10,089 nt of DNA from Nitrososphaerota archaeon (GTDB lineage Archaea > Thermoproteota > Nitrososphaeria > Nitrososphaerales > UBA57), in assembly GCA_013378385.1 (NCBI GenBank), contig JACAFS010000036.1, forward strand, positions 1 through 10,089. Reading direction: 5' to 3'. The notes beneath the pieces were generated by a model. It was not told where the DNA came from. It did not search any database and saw only the letters and a program-made list of their open reading frames with translations. A program made the translations under genes and the position numbers. The stretch's first letter is position 1; each line of letters begins with the position of its first letter. This document shows positions 3,382 to 10,089 of this stretch, in pieces.

Positions 3382-3660
3382 ATGAAAATAGGAAAAGAAA
3401 CAAAACGACATTGTCCAAAATGCAACAAGCATACAGTTAATGCTATTTCTATCTACAAAGCAGGCAAACAAAGAGGAAGCTCATTGGGAGCCCGTAATCA
3501 CGAAAAAGATCGCAAGGGTTATGGCGGACAAAAATTCCCAGAACTCAAACGTACTGCGAAAACAACCAAGAAAATAACTCTGCGTTACAAATGCAAAGAA
3601 TGTAGTAAAGTGTGCATGGGTCGTGGATTTAGAATCCGAAAACTGGAGATAATAGCATGA
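3382..3660 (+). CDS. rpl44e: Large-subunit ribosomal protein L44e (eL42)
   Basis: 92 aa, highly basic, CPKC...CKEC zinc ribbon, KGYGGQ motif; typical length and sequence for archaeal L44e. ATGA overlap with rps27e. Confidence 0.95.
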   Translation: MKIGKETKRHCPKCNKHTVNAISIYKAGKQRGSSLGARNHEKDRKGYGGQKFPELKRTAKTTKKITLRYKCKECSKVCMGRGFRIRKLEIIA

Positions 3661-3854: not shown

Positions 3855-6017
3855 ATGTCTATAGTTGATTCCATAAAATCTATCAAGCTTGATTCTATAA
3901 GACCCGTAACATCAAGACAAACACTTGTAATTGTAATGACTTTGTCTATTATATTCTCTGCAGCACTTATGCTGAGAATCTTTCCTGTAAAATACGGTTA
4001 TTTTCTCAATGAATTCGATCCCTTCTTTGACTATTATGCATCAAAATTTATTGTTGACCATTTTGACGCAAGTGGAATTAGTGGTTTATTAGATTATTTT
4101 AGTTGGCATGATTACAGAACTTGGTATCCAGAAGGAAGACCTGTAGCTAGAACTTCTCAGGTCGGTCTTCACTTTGCTGGCGCCTTATTTTATATTTTAG
4201 CAAGGGATGTTTTTGGATTAACTAGTTCCCTATACGATTTCGTCGTCATCTTTCCGCCAATCGTTGGTGCGCTTAGTATAATTCCAGTCTACTTGATTGC
4301 ACGTCGTGTTACTTCTGAAGGAGGAGCACTTTTCGCCAGCTTGCTTATTGCATTCTCAACGTCAATAATCCAAAGAGGCAATCTTGGTTGGTTCAAATCT
4401 GAGCCTTTTGCGTTACTTCTTTCTCTATCCGGTAGCTATTTATTCCTAACAATGTTTGACCCCGATCGCTCACACCGTAATCTTGTGCTACGTGCTGTAT
4501 TGGCAGGAACACTTATGGGAATATCACTCACAGCATGGGGAGGATCCCAATTCTTTAACATTGTATTCGCTGTATTGATTCTTGTTATACCGTTCATCAA
4601 AGTTGACCAACAGAAAGCCGTTTTTACCACATCGATCTTCGTAGCATTATATATTATCACAGCTGCAATATCTCCAAGACCAGGAGCAGCTTTTATTCTT
4701 TCTCCAGCAGGTCTAGCATTATTAGGTTCACTCGCTTTTGCTATTCTTGCAAATGTTATCAGACATTATTCACATGCATTTGAATATGTTAATATTCTCA
4801 AGAATACAGTAATTGGACTGTTCTTTAGCGCAGTTGTAATTCTAAGTTTAGGATTCTTATCTGAAGTAAGTGGACGCTATCTTACTGTAATCATGCCATT
4901 TCGAAGAAGTGGAGTTCCGTTGGTCGAATCTGTAGCAGAACACTTTGTTCCAACTGGAGCGCAGTTCTTCCAAGAATATATGATTCTATTACCATTTGCC
5001 GTGTTTGGAGCTATGCAATTACTTAACAAACGTGACATTAGTTCTGTCTTCGTTCTCGTATTGGCAGCTTCGGGTGTTTACATATCTGGTTCATTCTCCC
5101 GTTTAATGATCTTCTCGTCCATTGCCATTGCTCTTCTTGCAGCAGTAGGGTTCATCACAGTTACATCAGCTATATTTCGTCCATTATTGACAGGCATTGG
5201 AAAACAAGCTACCGGTAAATCGGAAACCCGGACAGGACTGAAAATTATGTATTCACTCTTCATGATTGTAGTACTATGTTTCCCAGTTATTGCACCATCT
5301 TACGGATACAATTGGGTGCTATCCGCAGACATACCAACTAGTATTTCTAATTCGGGCAGTACGTTCAGAGGACACGATCCAAGTTTCCTTGAAGCACTTG
5401 CATGGATGGAATCTTCTACTCCAGAAGACTCTGTAATTGCTGCTTGGTGGGACTATGGATATTGGATTACTGTCATGGGCAATCGGACAAGCCTGGCGGA
5501 CAACGCAACAATTAATGGCACAAGAATCGAAGTTCTTGGTCAAATGTTTATGTCGCCGGAGGAGGAATCATTGGAAATTCTAGATTCACTTGACGCAGAT
5601 TATGTTTTAATATTCCTAGCAGGAACAAAAACCGGAAACCAACAATTTGGAGATCTATATCTTCTGGGCGGAGGCGGAGACGAAAGTAAGAAACAGTGGT
5701 TTATACGAATTGGAGGATTTGATGAAGCTCAATTTCTAGAGGCTGATGGATTTTCACCTAATGAGAATTTATGGGAGAATTCATTCCTTGGTCGACTTAT
5801 GCCATTTACATGGGAGCTCGCCATAGATGCCGAAAATAATGTCTATCAAGAATACGAATTCAATCCTGAAACAACTGATCTTTACAAATATCAGATGAAA
5901 TATCCTGCAGACGGAAATGGTCCTTTAAGACTAGCATTCGCATCATCAAGTTTGCAACCAGATGCGCCAGAAGGTCGTTTTAGTGGTGTATTGATTTACG
6001 AAATAGTAAAAGACTAG
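3855..6017 (+). CDS. aglB: Dolichyl-(mono/di)phosphooligosaccharide-protein glycosyltransferase AglB (STT3 homologue)
   Basis: 720 aa, ~13 N-terminal TM helices, early acidic loop NEFDPFFDYY. Catalytic WWDYGYW at nt 5445-5465 (W531-W537), followed by NRTSLADNATINGT. DK-type motif GDESKKQWFIRIGG (D609 at nt 5679). ATG directly abuts the rps27e TAA (TAAATG). Confidence 0.9.
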   Translation: MSIVDSIKSIKLDSIRPVTSRQTLVIVMTLSIIFSAALMLRIFPVKYGYFLNEFDPFFDYYASKFIVDHFDASGISGLLDYFSWHDYRTWYPEGRPVARTSQVGLHFAGALFYILARDVFGLTSSLYDFVVIFPPIVGALSIIPVYLIARRVTSEGGALFASLLIAFSTSIIQRGNLGWFKSEPFALLLSLSGSYLFLTMFDPDRSHRNLVLRAVLAGTLMGISLTAWGGSQFFNIVFAVLILVIPFIKVDQQKAVFTTSIFVALYIITAAISPRPGAAFILSPAGLALLGSLAFAILANVIRHYSHAFEYVNILKNTVIGLFFSAVVILSLGFLSEVSGRYLTVIMPFRRSGVPLVESVAEHFVPTGAQFFQEYMILLPFAVFGAMQLLNKRDISSVFVLVLAASGVYISGSFSRLMIFSSIAIALLAAVGFITVTSAIFRPLLTGIGKQATGKSETRTGLKIMYSLFMIVVLCFPVIAPSYGYNWVLSADIPTSISNSGSTFRGHDPSFLEALAWMESSTPEDSVIAAWWDYGYWITVMGNRTSLADNATINGTRIEVLGQMFMSPEEESLEILDSLDADYVLIFLAGTKTGNQQFGDLYLLGGGGDESKKQWFIRIGGFDEAQFLEADGFSPNENLWENSFLGRLMPFTWELAIDAENNVYQEYEFNPETTDLYKYQMKYPADGNGPLRLAFASSSLQPDAPEGRFSGVLIYEIVKD

Positions 6018-7003: not shown

Positions 7004-8395
7004 TTAGATAGAAGAAGTTGATAATAACCAAAGACCAAGTACAGTATAACCAACCATGAGCAGCAATATGGGCGCTTGACTTATGATTGATTTCTTGCTA
7101 TCCTTGAAAATTCTAAGAGATATTCTGTGTGCTACATAAACTGAAAGTATGTGACCAATCACAATTACAGCAACCTGGTAATTCCATAGCAATATGAAAT
7201 CTATTGCCCTAACAATCTCATAAGAACTTGTTCCAAATATATCCCAACCAAAACCAAACGGATCAGAAATCAGCTTAATTATCAGCTGACCGTTCAAAAA
7301 GAAATACGAAGAATAATGCGCTAAATGGTAAACAATTGATATAGGCAGAAGAGCTGGAACAAATCTTTGCGCAAGATCTACAACCGTTATGTCAGTTTGC
7401 GTAATAACTTTGGCTATTGTTACAAACGAATAGAATACAGAGAAGAATACAATAAATGACAATAAAATTCCTATTGTATTAACATAAATTACATCTAATC
7501 GTCCGCTTCCTCCAAATACATCTATTCCGATAAAATCATACCAAAACAAAGTAGAAATCAATCCATCGAACGACACCACGGATAATATCAAAATCAGAAA
7601 ACAAAGTTGATCAAAACGGTAACGTACGTCAAGTAGCCCAGATGCAATGGGACGTAACAGTATCTTTCCATCTGATGTTACACGAGTCATAGAAAAACTC
7701 GAAACAAAATTAAAGAAAACAGTAAAAGGTTCGCAGTTATTCAACCATTTGTCCTTTCCAAAGACCCGCATTCCTGCCAAAACAATTACCGAATAAACAA
7801 AAATTATGTTTCCGAGAAACTGGGGATATGCAGGTGTAGGATAGACCAACTCTATCCATGCAAATATGAGGAAAAACCCGAAGGCAGGCCATGACTTTAA
7901 CTTCTCTGGATACTGTCTCAGAGGCTTCTCATTGAACTTGATTAATTCAAAAATGTTTTTCCATGGATTTACAAAATTCCAACTGTCGCCAAACAGTATG
8001 TGCAGCCATATGAATCCTCCCCACCAAATTACCCAAACAAATGTTGGTGCAAAATTCTTTATTGGAAATTGCGCTCCCAATACTCCAGTAAGAATAGTCA
8101 GTATGAACAATCCAATCGAAATAATTTTGAAAACGTTCAACAGTGATTTATTCTTGTATAACGTATTGACAAAACCAAGATTGCGTAAATTATAAGTCCG
8201 ATACGAATCGTCGTATGACTTGCTCTTTACAAATAGACTAATTATGGCGAATGAAGCGATTACCGCAGCTCCACCACCTAACCAATACAGATATCCAGGA
8301 ATGGGAAGATCTATCTTCGAACCAAAACCATGAGCATAAGCATTGGGCAGAAGCAATAATTGAAGTAGGATTATGGTAAAAAATATTTTCTTCAT
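7004..8395 (-). CDS. Uncharacterised polytopic membrane protein (~11 TM) with signal-peptide-like N-terminus
   Basis: 463 aa. MKKIFFTIILLQLLLLPNAYA|HGFGSKIDLPIP (AxA-type cleavage site, then His22). About 10 further hydrophobic helices. His pairs in C-terminal helices (SIVYHLAHY; IGHILSVYVAHR). No transporter family confidently recognised. Confidence 0.8.
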   Translation of the reverse strand: MKKIFFTIILLQLLLLPNAYAHGFGSKIDLPIPGYLYWLGGGAAVIASFAIISLFVKSKSYDDSYRTYNLRNLGFVNTLYKNKSLLNVFKIISIGLFILTILTGVLGAQFPIKNFAPTFVWVIWWGGFIWLHILFGDSWNFVNPWKNIFELIKFNEKPLRQYPEKLKSWPAFGFFLIFAWIELVYPTPAYPQFLGNIIFVYSVIVLAGMRVFGKDKWLNNCEPFTVFFNFVSSFSMTRVTSDGKILLRPIASGLLDVRYRFDQLCFLILILSVVSFDGLISTLFWYDFIGIDVFGGSGRLDVIYVNTIGILLSFIVFFSVFYSFVTIAKVITQTDITVVDLAQRFVPALLPISIVYHLAHYSSYFFLNGQLIIKLISDPFGFGWDIFGTSSYEIVRAIDFILLWNYQVAVIVIGHILSVYVAHRISLRIFKDSKKSIISQAPILLLMVGYTVLGLWLLSTSSI

Positions 8396-8429
8396 TTCTT
8401 GAACGTATATCTAATTGTGTAATCTCAAC

Positions 8430-8436
8430 AAAAAAA
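8430..8436 (-). terminator. T7 tract between the 267-aa gene and the membrane-protein gene (terminator or attenuator; ambiguous)
   Basis: A7 on the plus strand is T7 on the coding strand, 10 nt after the TGA at 8446-8448. The only TATA-like element for the downstream gene (TTAGATATAC, ~8404-8413) sits just ~15 nt from its ATG. So this may instead be a read-through bicistron, or the T-tract may belong to a promoter. Confidence 0.25.
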
Positions 8437-8445
8437 CTTATTGAA

Positions 8446-9249
8446 TCAAGCCTTAGGCATGACTTCCAAGAATCCAATCAATGTGGCTTTTTCCTCTTCT
8501 TCATGTCCATGTTCCTCTTCCATGTCCATTCCTGGTTCCATCATGCTTTCTATTACAAATGTTTGACTTGCTTGGTTCCCGATTAACTTGTGCTCAGCAT
8601 TAACCAAGCTAACGTAAACTGTATGCTCGCCTTTTGTTATTGATTTCAAAATATACGCTTTCTCATCAAATACCATCAATGCAGAATGATCGTCATCTGT
8701 GATCTCTTCATCTAATTTAATATGCCAATGTATCCCTTTAGAAGGAAATTCTACACCCTCAATTTCCACCGAAACAGTTGCCATATTGTCCATTACCATC
8801 ACTGATTCAATACTAATCTTCGCATTACTCAAATCCATATTCATGTCACCCATATCGCCCATATCATCTTCTCCAGAATGTATCTCAATATCAAACCTGC
8901 CTGGGAGCGTCGCAGAAAAACTCAATACCCTAACCTCATCTGCCATGAGCATTATCTCATGATCGTATTCGTGTATATGAAACCTCAGATTCTCATCAGA
9001 TTTTATGTTAAGCAATACTTGATCCCCTACTTCTACCGAAATTAAAGGCGGATCTAAAGTCATCTTTCGATTAATTATATTTATTTCAAATTCCTTTAGT
9101 TTCTCTTCATCGACCTCTTTAGAAACTTTAATCTCTATCTGATTTTCAACAGATTCATCTTCTGTGCCAGTAAATGTGAAAGCAACCATTGCTAGAAAAA
9201 TTAAACCAACTATTCCAACTAGAAAATTCTTATTTTTTTGTGTACTCAT
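8446..9249 (-). CDS. Membrane-anchored extracytoplasmic two-domain protein: Cys-less cupredoxin-like domain, a second beta-sandwich-like domain, and Met/His-rich motifs
   Basis: 267 aa. N-terminal anchor FLVGIVGLIFLAMVAFTFTG. Cupredoxin-like pattern LISVEVGDQVLLNIKSDENLRFHIHEYDHEI...LSFSATLPGRFDIEIH, lacking the Cys ligand. MGDMGDMNMD linker. Second domain has GIHWHIKLD...KGEHTVYVSLVNAEH. Tail MMEPGMDMEEEHGHEEEE. Confidence 0.8.
   Translation of the reverse strand: MSTQKNKNFLVGIVGLIFLAMVAFTFTGTEDESVENQIEIKVSKEVDEEKLKEFEINIINRKMTLDPPLISVEVGDQVLLNIKSDENLRFHIHEYDHEIMLMADEVRVLSFSATLPGRFDIEIHSGEDDMGDMGDMNMDLSNAKISIESVMVMDNMATVSVEIEGVEFPSKGIHWHIKLDEEITDDDHSALMVFDEKAYILKSITKGEHTVYVSLVNAEHKLIGNQASQTFVIESMMEPGMDMEEEHGHEEEEKATLIGFLEVMPKA
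8833..8862 (-). repeat. Short imperfect tandem codon repeat encoding MGDMGDMNMD
   Basis: Plus strand atc cat att cat gtc acc cat atc gcc cat reads, on the minus strand, as ATG GGC GAT ATG GGT GAC ATG AAT ATG GAT (residues 130-139). Confidence 0.6.
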
Positions 9250-9272
9250 TTCTAATATAGCACTAATTGTTT

Positions 9273-9284
9273 CTATAATAAAAA
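9273..9284 (-). promoter_or_regulatory. TATA-like box upstream of the 267-aa gene
   Basis: Minus-strand TTTTTATTATAG centred ~30 nt upstream of the ATG at 9249. Confidence 0.35.
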
Positions 9285-9296
9285 TCTCACTACGTT

Positions 9297-9338
9297 AAAG
9301 AACTGATGCTAACACTGTTAACAAAAATTCAGTTGTTT
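9297..9338. repeat. Nested inverted repeat between the Cys-rich gene and the 267-aa gene
   Basis: Outer arms AAAGAACTGA (9297-9306) and TCAGTTGTTT (9329-9338) are complementary at 9/10 positions. Inner 11-nt palindrome TAACAcTGTTA at 9310-9320. Lies 4 nt downstream of the stop at 9342-9344 and upstream of the TATA at 9273-9284. Confidence 0.5.
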
Positions 9339-9341
9339 AGA

Positions 9342-9716
9342 CTATCCAGCGCCACGTGGTGCTTGACATACTCCAGCTGGGGAATGACATCTACCAGTCT
9401 GTGCATTGCATACTTGGGCTCCTCCACATCCACAGTCGAATTGACATGTATTGCAAAGTTCGTGAGCATCACATACACCATTACCACATGAGTTCGATAG
9501 AGTTGTACAGGTTTCTGCATCCATCCAATTTGGACATTTATATTTTGGTGCATTTGGAAGTAAAGGTGATATGTCGCCAACCGCAGAGATAGATAACGAT
9601 TCATCTTCTTCACCTATTCCTAACATTGGTACTCCACCTGTAAAGATCATATAACCTACTATTGCAGTTGCTATGAGAAGCGGAATAGGAATAAATTTTT
9701 CATATTGGGCTGACAT
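9342..9716 (-). CDS. Membrane-anchored small protein with extracytoplasmic 11-Cys domain
   Basis: 124 aa. N-terminal anchor FIPIPLLIATAIVGYMIFTGG, acidic linker. C-terminal KCPNWMDAETCTTLSNSCGNGVCDAHELCNTCQFDCGCGGAQVCNAQTGRCHSPAGVCQ contains a CGNGxCDxxExCxxCxxDCG-type module. Own TATA-like box ~31 nt upstream. Confidence 0.7.
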   Translation of the reverse strand: MSAQYEKFIPIPLLIATAIVGYMIFTGGVPMLGIGEEDESLSISAVGDISPLLPNAPKYKCPNWMDAETCTTLSNSCGNGVCDAHELCNTCQFDCGCGGAQVCNAQTGRCHSPAGVCQAPRGAG

Positions 9717-9741
9717 ATACGACTACTAGCGAGTATTTCAC

Positions 9742-9753
9742 TAATAAATATTA
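9742..9753 (-). promoter_or_regulatory. TATA-like box upstream of the Cys-rich gene
   Basis: Minus-strand AATATTTATTAG centred ~31 nt upstream of the ATG at 9716. Confidence 0.35.
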
Positions 9754-9755
9754 CT

Positions 9756-9761
9756 AAAAAA
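9756..9761 (-). terminator. Oligo-T tract (T6) downstream of the cupredoxin gene
   Basis: A6 on the plus strand is T6 on the coding strand, ~21 nt after the TAA at 9782-9784. Confidence 0.25.
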
Positions 9762-9781
9762 TTATTAATTTTATCACTAGA

Positions 9782-10089
9782 TTATCTGGGTATTACGGTA
9801 ATGGTTCCCATCATGTATGGATGTGGCTTGCAAAAATACTGGAATGTACCAACCTCATCAAATACGAAACTTGCATAGTCCTGTCTCTGCATATCCATGT
9901 CGAATATATTGTCCGGAGAAGTCACTGAATGAATTACATCATCTTTATTGTACCAAGTTACCTTCGTTCCTTGTACTATTGTTAATCCATGAGGTTCAAA
10001 ATTATAATTCTCGATATCTATCTGAATTTCACCCATTCCAATCACATCAAGAATCAAAAAGAAGGTCTTGACCGTGTTCTGGCTCTTTG
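9782..10089 (-). CDS. Type-1 (blue) copper protein, plastocyanin/amicyanin-like cupredoxin; 5' end probably outside the window
   Basis: Full T1 Cu ligand set: His in DDVIHSV, then FCKPHPYMMG (Cys-x2-His-x3-Met), ending TITVIPR. The track's 'M' at 10057 is really TTG. The frame stays open to 10089 (...KSQNTVKTFFLILDVIGMG...), so the N-terminal signal or anchor likely lies beyond the edge. An internal ATG at 10036 is the alternative start. Confidence 0.85.
   Translation of the reverse strand, partial: KSQNTVKTFFLILDVIGMGEIQIDIENYNFEPHGLTIVQGTKVTWYNKDDVIHSVTSPDNIFDMDMQRQDYASFVFDEVGTFQYFCKPHPYMMGTITVIPR

Follow-up and report, generated by a model that had tools for sequence, protein, structure and literature searches.

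A conserved gene pair for a cysteine-less cupredoxin-like protein and an undescribed polytopic membrane protein: a candidate outer-face metal-handling system

How prokaryotes import copper and load their membrane and periplasmic enzymes with it is poorly understood, and CopD/YcnJ and CcoA are the few copper importers proposed. A locus in a genome of the ammonia-oxidising archaea (AOA) raises the question whether a further system exists. The window analysed here is the whole stretch of 10,089 nt of contig JACAFS010000036.1 from a Nitrososphaerota archaeon (assembly GCA_013378385.1). Calling of open reading frames (ORFs) places four consecutive genes on its minus strand between positions 7004 and 10089, numbered here in the direction of reading: gene 1 for a type-1 cupredoxin, gene 2 for a small Cys-rich protein, gene 3 for a Cys-less cupredoxin-like protein and gene 4 for a polytopic membrane protein. 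In a first-pass annotation the four were put forward as one locus for copper acquisition or trafficking, with an import route of AOA in mind. Our comparisons indicate that only genes 3 and 4, rather than the whole set of four, form the functional unit. We tentatively read this pair as a two-component system handling a transition metal at the outer face of the membrane, most likely copper and less likely iron, an assignment of the metal that rests on genomic context and ligand chemistry. The pair occurs in hundreds of species, among them deep-ocean ammonia oxidisers, SAR202-type Chloroflexota, rhizobia, mycobacteria and haloarchaea, and its membrane component is without a relative in Pfam, NCBIfam or the PDB.

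Conservation of the gene 3-gene 4 pair

More than 1300 homologues of gene 4 are present in the protein collection, and the family is encoded in at least 342 GTDB species genomes, from which the best 80 loci were taken for a survey. These 80 loci belong to Dehalococcoidia and other Chloroflexota, Alpha-, Beta- and Gammaproteobacteria, Rubrobacter, Rokubacteria, Methylomirabilia, Tectomicrobia, Nitrospiraceae and Caldarchaeum; most of the family is bacterial. In about 55 of 85 loci the gene immediately preceding gene 4 on its strand is a gene 3 homologue, the ORFs overlapping at a median distance of -32 nt. This adjacency was found in AOA, Chloroflexota, Alpha-, Beta- and Gammaproteobacteria, Actinobacteria and Rubrobacter, and the pair is also present in Variovorax and, with an overlap of 4 nt, in mycobacteria and Pseudonocardia. 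An overlap of 4 nt between gene 4 and the gene before it is seen in Actinobacteria and haloarchaea. Thus the pairing of an outward binder with a polytopic membrane protein, as first suggested for the window, is kept across bacteria and archaea. Where gene 3 is missing, the neighbour of gene 4 appears almost always to be another extracytoplasmic copper-binding fold.

In the window the intergenic gaps are short, with 65 nt between genes 1 and 2, 92 nt between genes 2 and 3 and 50 nt between genes 3 and 4, and the ORF list bears out the common strand and these distances as first reported. An oligo-T run follows the stop of each of the four genes and AT-rich boxes precede their starts, the TATA-like box being well placed before genes 2 and 3 and weaker before gene 4. 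It was rightly cautioned that such an arrangement is a neighbourhood and not a proven operon. These signals, together with the linkage of genes 1 and 2 to the pair in close relatives only, speak for the view that there is no functional unit at all and that four unrelated genes for surface proteins stand side by side in an AT-rich archaeal genome. We consider this highly improbable, since the adjacency of genes 3 and 4 is kept across phyla, often with overlapping stop and start codons. Judged by synteny the view is refuted for the pair and stands for genes 1 and 2 only.

Within AOA, the order of a gene for a pyrroloquinoline quinone (PQQ) propeller, genes 1, 2, 3 and 4 and the eIF2-alpha gene is kept on four independent contigs (the window, L001, L087 and L089), with 76-89% identity between the gene 4 products. 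On a further AOA contig (L088) with a 53%-identical gene 4, the pair alone is kept in an unrelated gene context; a gene for nickel superoxide dismutase (Ni-SOD) and that for its S26 maturation peptidase lie there 1-2 kb downstream of the pair (7451-8484). The four-gene copper unit was therefore not upheld: synteny extends across phyla for genes 3 and 4, while genes 1 and 2 are linked to the pair only in one clade of closely related, uncultured marine AOA. All AOA members of the gene 4 family that were found are uncultured marine metagenome-assembled genomes (MAGs), one cluster also carrying a Tara mesopelagic gene label. No cultured AOA appears among the named homologues and no AOA genome among the GTDB matches listed. 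Since the AOA members are confined to uncultured marine lineages and the family is mostly bacterial, the pair is not a general copper import route of AOA, contrary to what was first supposed.

The two proteins of the pair

Gene 4 encodes a signal peptide followed by 10 transmembrane (TM) helices, both termini facing outside (N-out/C-out). The first count of about 11 TM helices had taken in all 11 hydrophobic segments, the signal peptide included, while the His at the mature N-terminus and those in the late helices were read correctly. The orientation was deduced from a positive-inside count in 35 homologues, with on average 4.7-6.2 Lys and Arg in loops 1, 3 and 5 and 0.1-1.4 in loops 2, 4, 6 and 8, and from proteobacterial members whose C-terminus is extended by a fused periplasmic domain resembling solute-binding proteins (PDB 7fi3, E=4e-12). 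The AlphaFold2 (AF2) model of gene 4 has a pLDDT of 87.5 and a pTM of 0.86, with pLDDT below 50 at residues 16-27.

The cleavage region of gene 4 reads AYA/HGFG, and the protein has His at positions 22, 132, 357, 360, 415 and 423. The invariant His stands directly behind an AxA site in 160 of 202 family members and behind an AxA, VxA or other small-residue site in about 189 (~94%). Because the signal-peptidase site directly precedes this His, mature gene 4 is predicted to start with H-G/A-F-G, 12 residues ahead of TM1, so that in about 189 of the 202 the His would be mature residue 1, as in a histidine brace. Alignment of the homologues shows H22, H360, H415, H423 and D277 among the invariant columns and E182 as nearly invariant. 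H360 lies in the outer third of TM8, H415 in the middle and H423 in the inner third of TM9, and D277 and E182 are near the outer ends of TM6 and TM4, respectively. Further conserved motifs are PTFVWVIWW and SDPFGxGW. Most of the distant homologues have a CxxCxxxC-x6-CxxCxxC motif in a long cytoplasmic loop; gene 4 of the window, with two Cys, is devoid of this Cys loop, and so are several members from Proteobacteria.

Gene 4 gave no Pfam or NCBIfam match at E<=1, 35 diverse members gave sub-threshold Pfam matches only, and no relative was found among PDB sequences. In a Foldseek comparison of the AF2 model with the PDB no neighbour was obtained, every TM-score being below 0.2, and an internal or inverted repeat, as in many secondary transporters, was not detectable. 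Gene 4 thus appears to represent an undescribed family of polytopic membrane proteins, in keeping with the first-pass statement, confirmed by Pfam and NCBIfam profile searches, that genes 2 to 4 match no named family. Several candidates were tried and rejected. For CopD (PF05425) there was no Pfam match in the 35 members, and hhalign against CopC-CopD fusions returned a probability of 0.2; for Ftr1/EfeU neither an FTR1 Pfam match nor a REXXE or ExxE motif was found; for an FtrD/NapH polyferredoxin the matches were weak (FtrD-like, E=0.054; NapH/MauN, E=0.083, 12.4 vs 213 bits). HupE/UreJ and CbiM/NikM likewise gave no Pfam or NCBIfam match at E<=1, only the principle of an N-terminal His being common to them and gene 4. 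Genes 3 and 4 as subunits of a haem-copper oxidase were dismissed as well, with no COX1 or COX2 Pfam match, no Cys in gene 3 and three invariant TM His in gene 4.

The product of gene 3 is free of Cys and contains 11 His (4.1% vs 1.3% in the other proteins of the window) and 18 Met (6.7% vs 2.6%); it is membrane-tethered as first described, and every motif quoted at that time is present. Its AF2 model (pLDDT 78) consists of an N-terminal helix, a beta-sandwich formed by residues 51-124 and strand 255-264, and a second, immunoglobulin (Ig)-like domain at residues 144-233, which sits between two disordered linkers rich in Met, His and acidic residues. A linker similar in character to the first is kept in homologues, and G259, V263 and P265, in and next to the C-terminal strand, are conserved in all of them, including those without the insert. 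Archaeal and bacterial homologues alike keep H91, H93 and H124 without exception; D85 and Y95 are likewise invariant, and D96 is nearly so.

The three invariant His of gene 3 occupy the positions of the HxH/H ligands of multicopper oxidases (MCOs). In the family profile, the FH-x-H-G-Y-D motif aligns with HVHGLDYE of small laccases, which holds T2/T3 copper ligands (more fully, ...GD.V.l.i.sDe...FH(l/i)HgYD with SLHVHGLDYE of MCO domain 1), and the third His falls where the second HxH motif of small laccases sits; the profile further reaches nitrosocyanin and CuA domains. In contrast to MCOs, gene 3 is a single domain without a type-1 Cys site, matches Pfam Cu-oxidase below threshold and has three of the four His that one MCO domain gives to the trinuclear cluster (eight in all). 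With one HxH, one further His and no Cys, and with homologues under the Cu-oxidase_2 cut-off, the assignment as an MCO was rejected. The match to Cupredoxin_1 (PF13473) is also below threshold (17 bits, cut-off 27, E=0.006; 18.3 bits for the homologue in L086). By these comparisons gene 3 would be a sub-threshold relative of Cupredoxin_1 and MCO domain 1 with a ligand set of its own. Foldseek placed CuA domains on top, the best matches including subunit II of haem-copper oxidases with its TM helix (7deg_B, 5ndc_B), and also retrieved the Cup domain of EfeO (7wgu), Cupredoxin_1 of B. anthracis with bound Cu (4hcf, 4hci) and FtrB of Brucella (8vuk), with TMt 0.72 and rmsd 1.7 for 4hci, TMt 0.61 for 8vuk and E of about 1e-4.

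The Ig-like insert of gene 3, here called the GHxH domain, is polymorphic among close relatives, very close marine AOA included, being present in the window (267 aa) and in L089 (256 aa) and absent from the proteins of L001 (161 aa), L087 (146 aa), L088 (157 aa) and L002 (131 aa). It also occurs in N-terminal-His proteins of 250-521 aa encoded near the CopC-CopD genes of Dehalococcoidia, those of 368, 431 and 521 aa being matched by hmmsearch. The domain thus appears to be a mobile, metal-related module. It has no Pfam model, and some homologues show weak DUF2846 matches.

The likeness of gene 3 to oxidase subunits gives rise to a rather different explanation, in which the pair is a membrane redox enzyme or electron-transfer complex: a subunit-II-like gene 3 would be docked on gene 4, whose TM His would hold a metal or haem, and the complex would act as a metal reductase or oxidase or as a quinol-linked partner of the neighbouring blue copper proteins. 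As in subunits II and I of haem-copper oxidases, the gene for an outward cupredoxin anchored by a TM helix immediately precedes that for a polytopic protein whose TM helices hold invariant His. Moreover, the three His of gene 3 are at MCO positions normally found at a domain interface, an Fe-S cluster could be bound by the Cys loop of most gene 4 homologues, the neighbours include type-1 cupredoxins, a cytochrome c domain and HiPIP, and gene 4 has no transporter-like internal repeat. Nevertheless, gene 3 lacks the CuA Cys, and gene 4 matches neither COX1 nor cytochrome b nor any other redox family, has only three invariant TM His, and spaces its His (357/360, 415/423) in a way unfit for a di-haem bundle. 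The Cys loop is dispensable, and both the partners of the CopC/PCuAC chaperone type and the fused solute-binding-protein domain point to delivery of a metal or substrate. We therefore rate a redox complex as improbable.

The metal and the proposed mechanism

Neighbouring genes and fusions connect the pair with copper. In seven Dehalococcoidia loci a 742-aa fusion of CopC, CopD, YtkA and cytochrome c is encoded upstream of gene 4 on the same strand, mostly immediately, and N-terminal-His proteins are encoded further upstream, with the GHxH module in at least three of these loci (L044, L067, L078) and TlpA-like redoxins in two (L044, L067). In Sulfitobacter, PCuAC (31.8 vs 29.4 bits) is fused to the GHxH module and encoded divergently next to gene 4. 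On plasmids of M. chubuense NBB4 and M. dioxanotrophicus PH-06, sigC is followed by the gene of a gene 3-like lipoprotein and, with an overlap of 4 nt, by gene 4, and the two adjoin the CAB operon of a copper membrane monooxygenase (CuMMO; L090 6710-9332 and L091 5487-13560), from which a zf-HC2 anti-sigma gene separates the pair in PH-06. SigC controls the copper-starvation response in M. tuberculosis (PMC7924339). The CopC-CopD, PCuAC, sigC and copper monooxygenase contexts thus support the copper link first proposed for genes 3 and 4. The CuMMO, PCuAC and P19 links come from plasmid records only, and within 6 kb of gene 4 no CuMMO, PCuAC, P19-like or DyP-like gene was found in 86 genome and metagenome loci. 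These mycobacteria, in which the pair adjoins operons of copper monooxygenases under a regulator of the SigC type, can be cultured, so that the supply of copper, or iron, to such enzymes is open there to a knock-out; related genes are also present in the genetic model Haloferax volcanii.

Other genes recur upstream of gene 4. One, in 35 loci, encodes a weakly YtkA-like, C-terminally anchored Ig protein of about 180 aa; in two of these loci, from non-marine Thaumarchaeota, it follows gene 4 instead. Another, in 19 loci, encodes a TM protein of about 137 aa that is rich in His. CoxB-like ORFs occur in three loci and those of TlpA-like thiol-disulfide oxidoreductases in seven. Type-1 cupredoxins flank the pair in AOA, and in a Rhodospirillaceae MAG (L006 7609-11367) haem O synthase and cytochrome c oxidase subunits II and I are encoded directly downstream of it. 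Genes for ABC transporters of the Liv type (HAAT) adjoin gene 4 in Bradyrhizobium (L037 2746-8592), Sulfitobacter (L100 6752-12870) and Caldarchaeum (L055 7528-10844). As side observations in Proteobacteria, the solute-binding-protein domain fused to gene 4 is of a family-5-like kind, a second ORF, of about 390 aa and likewise solute-binding-protein-like, lies upstream, and in eight loci a secreted YNCE-like beta-propeller with a weak SBP56/methanethiol-oxidase match (E=0.009) is encoded divergently upstream of the pair (for example L011 4286-5476, L020 4133-5314 and L073 4205-5404).

The ligands are in line with these contexts. An N-terminal His is a hallmark copper ligand of LPMO, CopC, PmoB and YcnI (PMC8424229). 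The MCO-type HxH of gene 3 and the N-terminal His of gene 4 both point to copper. Partners of the chaperone type and the solute-binding-protein domain fused to gene 4 speak for transport or delivery rather than catalysis. In kind, the pair may be likened to the CopC/CopD or the OFeT iron systems, with a binder on the periplasmic side and a membrane permease. As in CopC/CopD (YcnJ of B. subtilis, YobA-YebZ of E. coli), an outward copper-binding beta-sandwich with His is combined with a polytopic, ATPase-free membrane protein, and an N-terminal His after cleavage is common to both, in the pair on the membrane protein itself; gene 4, however, is not homologous to CopD, and the fold of gene 3 is that of a cupredoxin, not of CopC.

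From an outward His3 cupredoxin-like protein, a His-rich 10-TM protein and partners with copper-binding folds we derive a model of metal hand-over. Gene 3, anchored by its single N-terminal helix, would capture Cu from the medium with its linkers and His3 site and pass it to gene 4, whose N-terminal His would form a histidine-brace-like or 'angler' site for receiving it. The Cu might then be moved by gene 4 along the His ladder H360, H415 and H423 into the cell or to cuproenzymes of the membrane or pseudo-periplasm, and in most bacterial homologues the cytoplasmic loop with six Cys, which is absent from the window, may accept the metal. It is conceivable, though in our opinion doubtful, that gene 4 with interchangeable outward copper chaperones (Cup-like, CopC, PCuAC, P19-like) constitutes a new type of copper importer or insertase. 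That such a protein would feed cuproenzymes including copper membrane monooxygenases, namely AMO in marine AOA and HMO in mycobacteria, is a similarly speculative proposal.

Several observations weigh against a system for copper. Co-transcription in the window is putative only, since an AT-rich box precedes and an oligo-T run follows every one of the genes. Actinobacterial members of the gene 4 family have no signal peptide, and paralogues in Haloferax and Haloarcula are entirely without the N-terminal His motif, so the N-terminal brace is frequent, not universal. Transport by gene 4, as opposed to catalysis, is putative, and so is its direction. No paper describing the gene 4 family was found in the literature; a study of Cu limitation in N. 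viennensis named only CopC/D, MCOs, DsbD and ZIP permeases. An N-terminal His also serves Ni permeases such as HupE/UreJ (PMC12537917), and the Ni-SOD gene of L088 lies near the pair. Furthermore, the nearest folds of gene 3 include the Cup domain of EfeO and FtrB, both proteins of iron systems. In haloarchaea gene 4 adjoins P19-like (PF10634+DUF7350) genes and, except in Haloferax, DyP-like (DUF7405) genes, both kinds being found in Haladaptatus, Halobaculum and Haloarcula, and in Halobaculum the locus also encodes an MCO, a ZIP protein, a plastocyanin and a DtxR-type regulator. The haloarchaeal loci lie in metal islands on megaplasmids (L095 6932-10766; L097 1413-12709; L099 6355-11831; L098 and L101 5257-10881), and a zinc-ribbon TM protein of 85-88 aa precedes the paralogues of Haloferax and Haloarcula.

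The accessory folds around gene 4 match the EfeUOB/FtrABCD set, so gene 4 could be a new oxidase-dependent iron permease. The pair would then take up iron, with gene 3 in the place of Cup or FtrB, as a Cu-dependent ferroxidase, and with gene 4 replacing Ftr1/EfeU and, in the homologues with a Cys loop, the polyferredoxin FtrD too. This is consistent with the Foldseek neighbours and the weak Cupredoxin_1 match of gene 3, with the haloarchaeal loci (P19-like only in Haloferax; MCO, ZIP and a DtxR-type regulator in Halobaculum), with the weak FtrD- and NapH/MauN-like matches of the Cys loop, with the JGI label 'polyferredoxin' on one gene 4 member, and with the operon of a soluble di-iron monooxygenase on the other side of the NBB4 pair. 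The permease itself differs: gene 4 has 10 TM helices and neither REXXE motif nor FTR1 match, His predominates among its conserved ligands, and the protein of the window is without the Cys loop. Moreover, FtrB binds Cu through D118 and H121 and Fe through E86 and E93 (PMC11966278), whereas the invariant residues of gene 3 (H91, H93, H124, D85, Y95) appear to form another ligand set. The CopC-CopD, PCuAC, sigC and copper monooxygenase contexts are copper-specific, P19 itself binds copper, and the P19-like and DyP-like genes are absent from the 86 loci named above. We consider iron uptake unlikely, yet the most serious of the alternatives; were the metal iron, gene 4 would be a new permease type for the EfeUOB/FtrABCD class, which would be new as well.

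A permease for Ni, Co or Zn with the N-terminal His as 'angler', comparable to HupE/UreJ or CbiM/NikM, we regard as quite improbable. A metal-fishing His at the mature N-terminus is known from Ni-binding proteins as well as Ni permeases (PMC12537917), gene 4 of Proteobacteria is fused to a domain of the peptide/nickel solute-binding-protein family, and metal genes of this type occur nearby: Ni-SOD in L088, CbtA in M. rufum and M. vanbaalenii, P1B-ATPase in Haloferax (which has HiPIP in addition) and Haloarcula, and CDF in Haloarcula. Against this, gene 4 shows no sequence kinship with those permeases, with no Pfam match to HupE/UreJ, CbiM or NiCoT, and they carry Ni or Co without a cupredoxin partner. 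No cobalamin or NiCo riboswitch was found in 22 loci, which yielded only tRNAs and one SRP RNA, and urease or hydrogenase genes are not recurrent in the neighbourhoods of gene 4. The Met-rich linkers and the cupredoxin, CopC and PCuAC partners are copper traits, and handling of copper remains our preferred, if tentative, reading of the pair.

Genes 1 and 2 and the rest of the window

The features of the locus are collected in Table 1. All four products are predicted to be exported or membrane-bound, as was first assumed.

Table 1. Features of the four-gene locus, with positions in the window
Feature	Positions	Strand	Description
Gene 4	7004..8395	-	463-aa polytopic membrane protein; core membrane component of the conserved pair
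Gene 4 signal peptide	8333..8395	-	Residues 1-21, ends AYA
Gene 4 His22 codon	8330..8332	-	Predicted mature residue 1 (HGFG); candidate histidine-brace/'angler' ligand
Gene 4 TM8-TM9	7127..7327	-	H357, H360, H415, H423; proposed intramembrane metal path
Gene 3/gene 4 spacer	8396..8445	-	50 nt; T7 run and AT-rich box
Gene 3	8446..9249	-	267-aa Cys-less, membrane-tethered cupredoxin-like protein; conserved partner of gene 4
Gene 3 membrane anchor	9184..9240	-	Residues 4-22; AF2 helix 4-22 and hydrophobic sequence
Gene 3 cupredoxin-like domain	8878..9099	-	Residues 51-124; H91, H93, H124 invariant; motif FHIHEYD...IEIH
Gene 3 linker 1	8821..8877	-	Acidic, Met-rich (SGEDDMGDMGDMNMDLS...); pLDDT <50 at residues 128-135
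Gene 3 inserted Ig-like GHxH domain	8551..8820	-	Residues 144-233; HWH (H174, H176), H188, H220
Gene 3 linker 2	8488..8550	-	Met/His/Glu-rich (MMEPGMDMEEEHGHEEEE); pLDDT <50 at residues 238-251
Gene 3 C-terminal strand	8458..8487	-	LIGFLEVMP; AF2 strand 255-264; completes the cupredoxin sheet
Gene 2	9342..9716	-	124-aa membrane-tethered 11-Cys protein; lineage-specific neighbour
Gene 1	9782..10089	-	Amicyanin-like type-1 cupredoxin, C-terminal 101 residues; lineage-specific neighbour

The ORF of gene 1 is still open at the end of the window, which holds its C-terminal part only. Gene 1 matches Pfam Copper-bind (PF00127) with 37.0 bits (cut-off 21.2, E=4.7e-9), and its best NCBIfam match is amicyanin (E=3.5e-10, under the equivalog cut-off). 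By its profile matches and ligands it is a genuine amicyanin-like type-1 cupredoxin. Its ligand set, His...Cys-x2-His-xn-Met, is read from VIH...FCKPHPYM. In this respect the first reading as a canonical type-1 cupredoxin was sound, except that the conserved copper loop is C-x2-H-x2-M, as in amicyanin, and not of the x3 form: a relative reads PYMTG, so that the first Met of the MM pair in gene 1 is the conserved one. The full-length relative in L001 has 228 aa, its residues 127-227 being 90% identical to the part in the window. In contrast to amicyanin and plastocyanin, which gene 1 resembles in the Pfam match and the ligand set, full-length relatives carry two additions, a membrane anchor and, at the N-terminus, a further domain of about 80 residues.

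Gene 2 encodes 11 Cys and an N-terminal hydrophobic helix, in agreement with the tethered 11-Cys protein first described, and has no Pfam or NCBIfam family match. An exhaustive phmmer search retrieved 70 representative clusters only. The same 11-Cys module forms the C-terminal tail of a 716-aa PQQ beta-propeller protein (P0246) and is found in larger proteins with 4-18 copies in tandem. In all of L001 (4448-6238), L087 (1471-3246) and L089 (1053-2843), gene 1 has a divergent neighbour that encodes a PQQ beta-propeller. Among the scanned loci gene 2 was detected in the window and L001 only, a 124/126-aa homologue preceding gene 3 in L087 and L089 too. The idea that the Cys domain is a module of copper ligands found no support and was rejected, the module being portable and present on unrelated surface proteins; gene 2 is probably a generic, portable Cys-rich surface module outside the core system. 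Genes 1 and 2 would be at most clients of the gene 3-gene 4 system, not parts of it.

Downstream of gene 4 the genes for eIF2-alpha and Nop10 follow on the same strand, and the remainder of the window consists of the housekeeping genes for the primase subunits PriL and PriS, Gins51, L44e, S27e and AglB. These genes stand very close together: PriL shares 11 nt with PriS (1540-1550) and L44e shares 4 nt with S27e, AglB starts after S27e without a gap, AglB and Nop10 converge with an overlap of 4 nt, and the end of eIF2-alpha and the start of Nop10 have one base in common (positions listed together for the tight packing: 3657-3660, 6014-6017 and 6169). Upstream of PriL, a small Lys-rich ORF of 86 aa on the minus strand (155-415) probably encodes a coiled coil, and in L001 an unannotated gene of 78 aa is found at its place.

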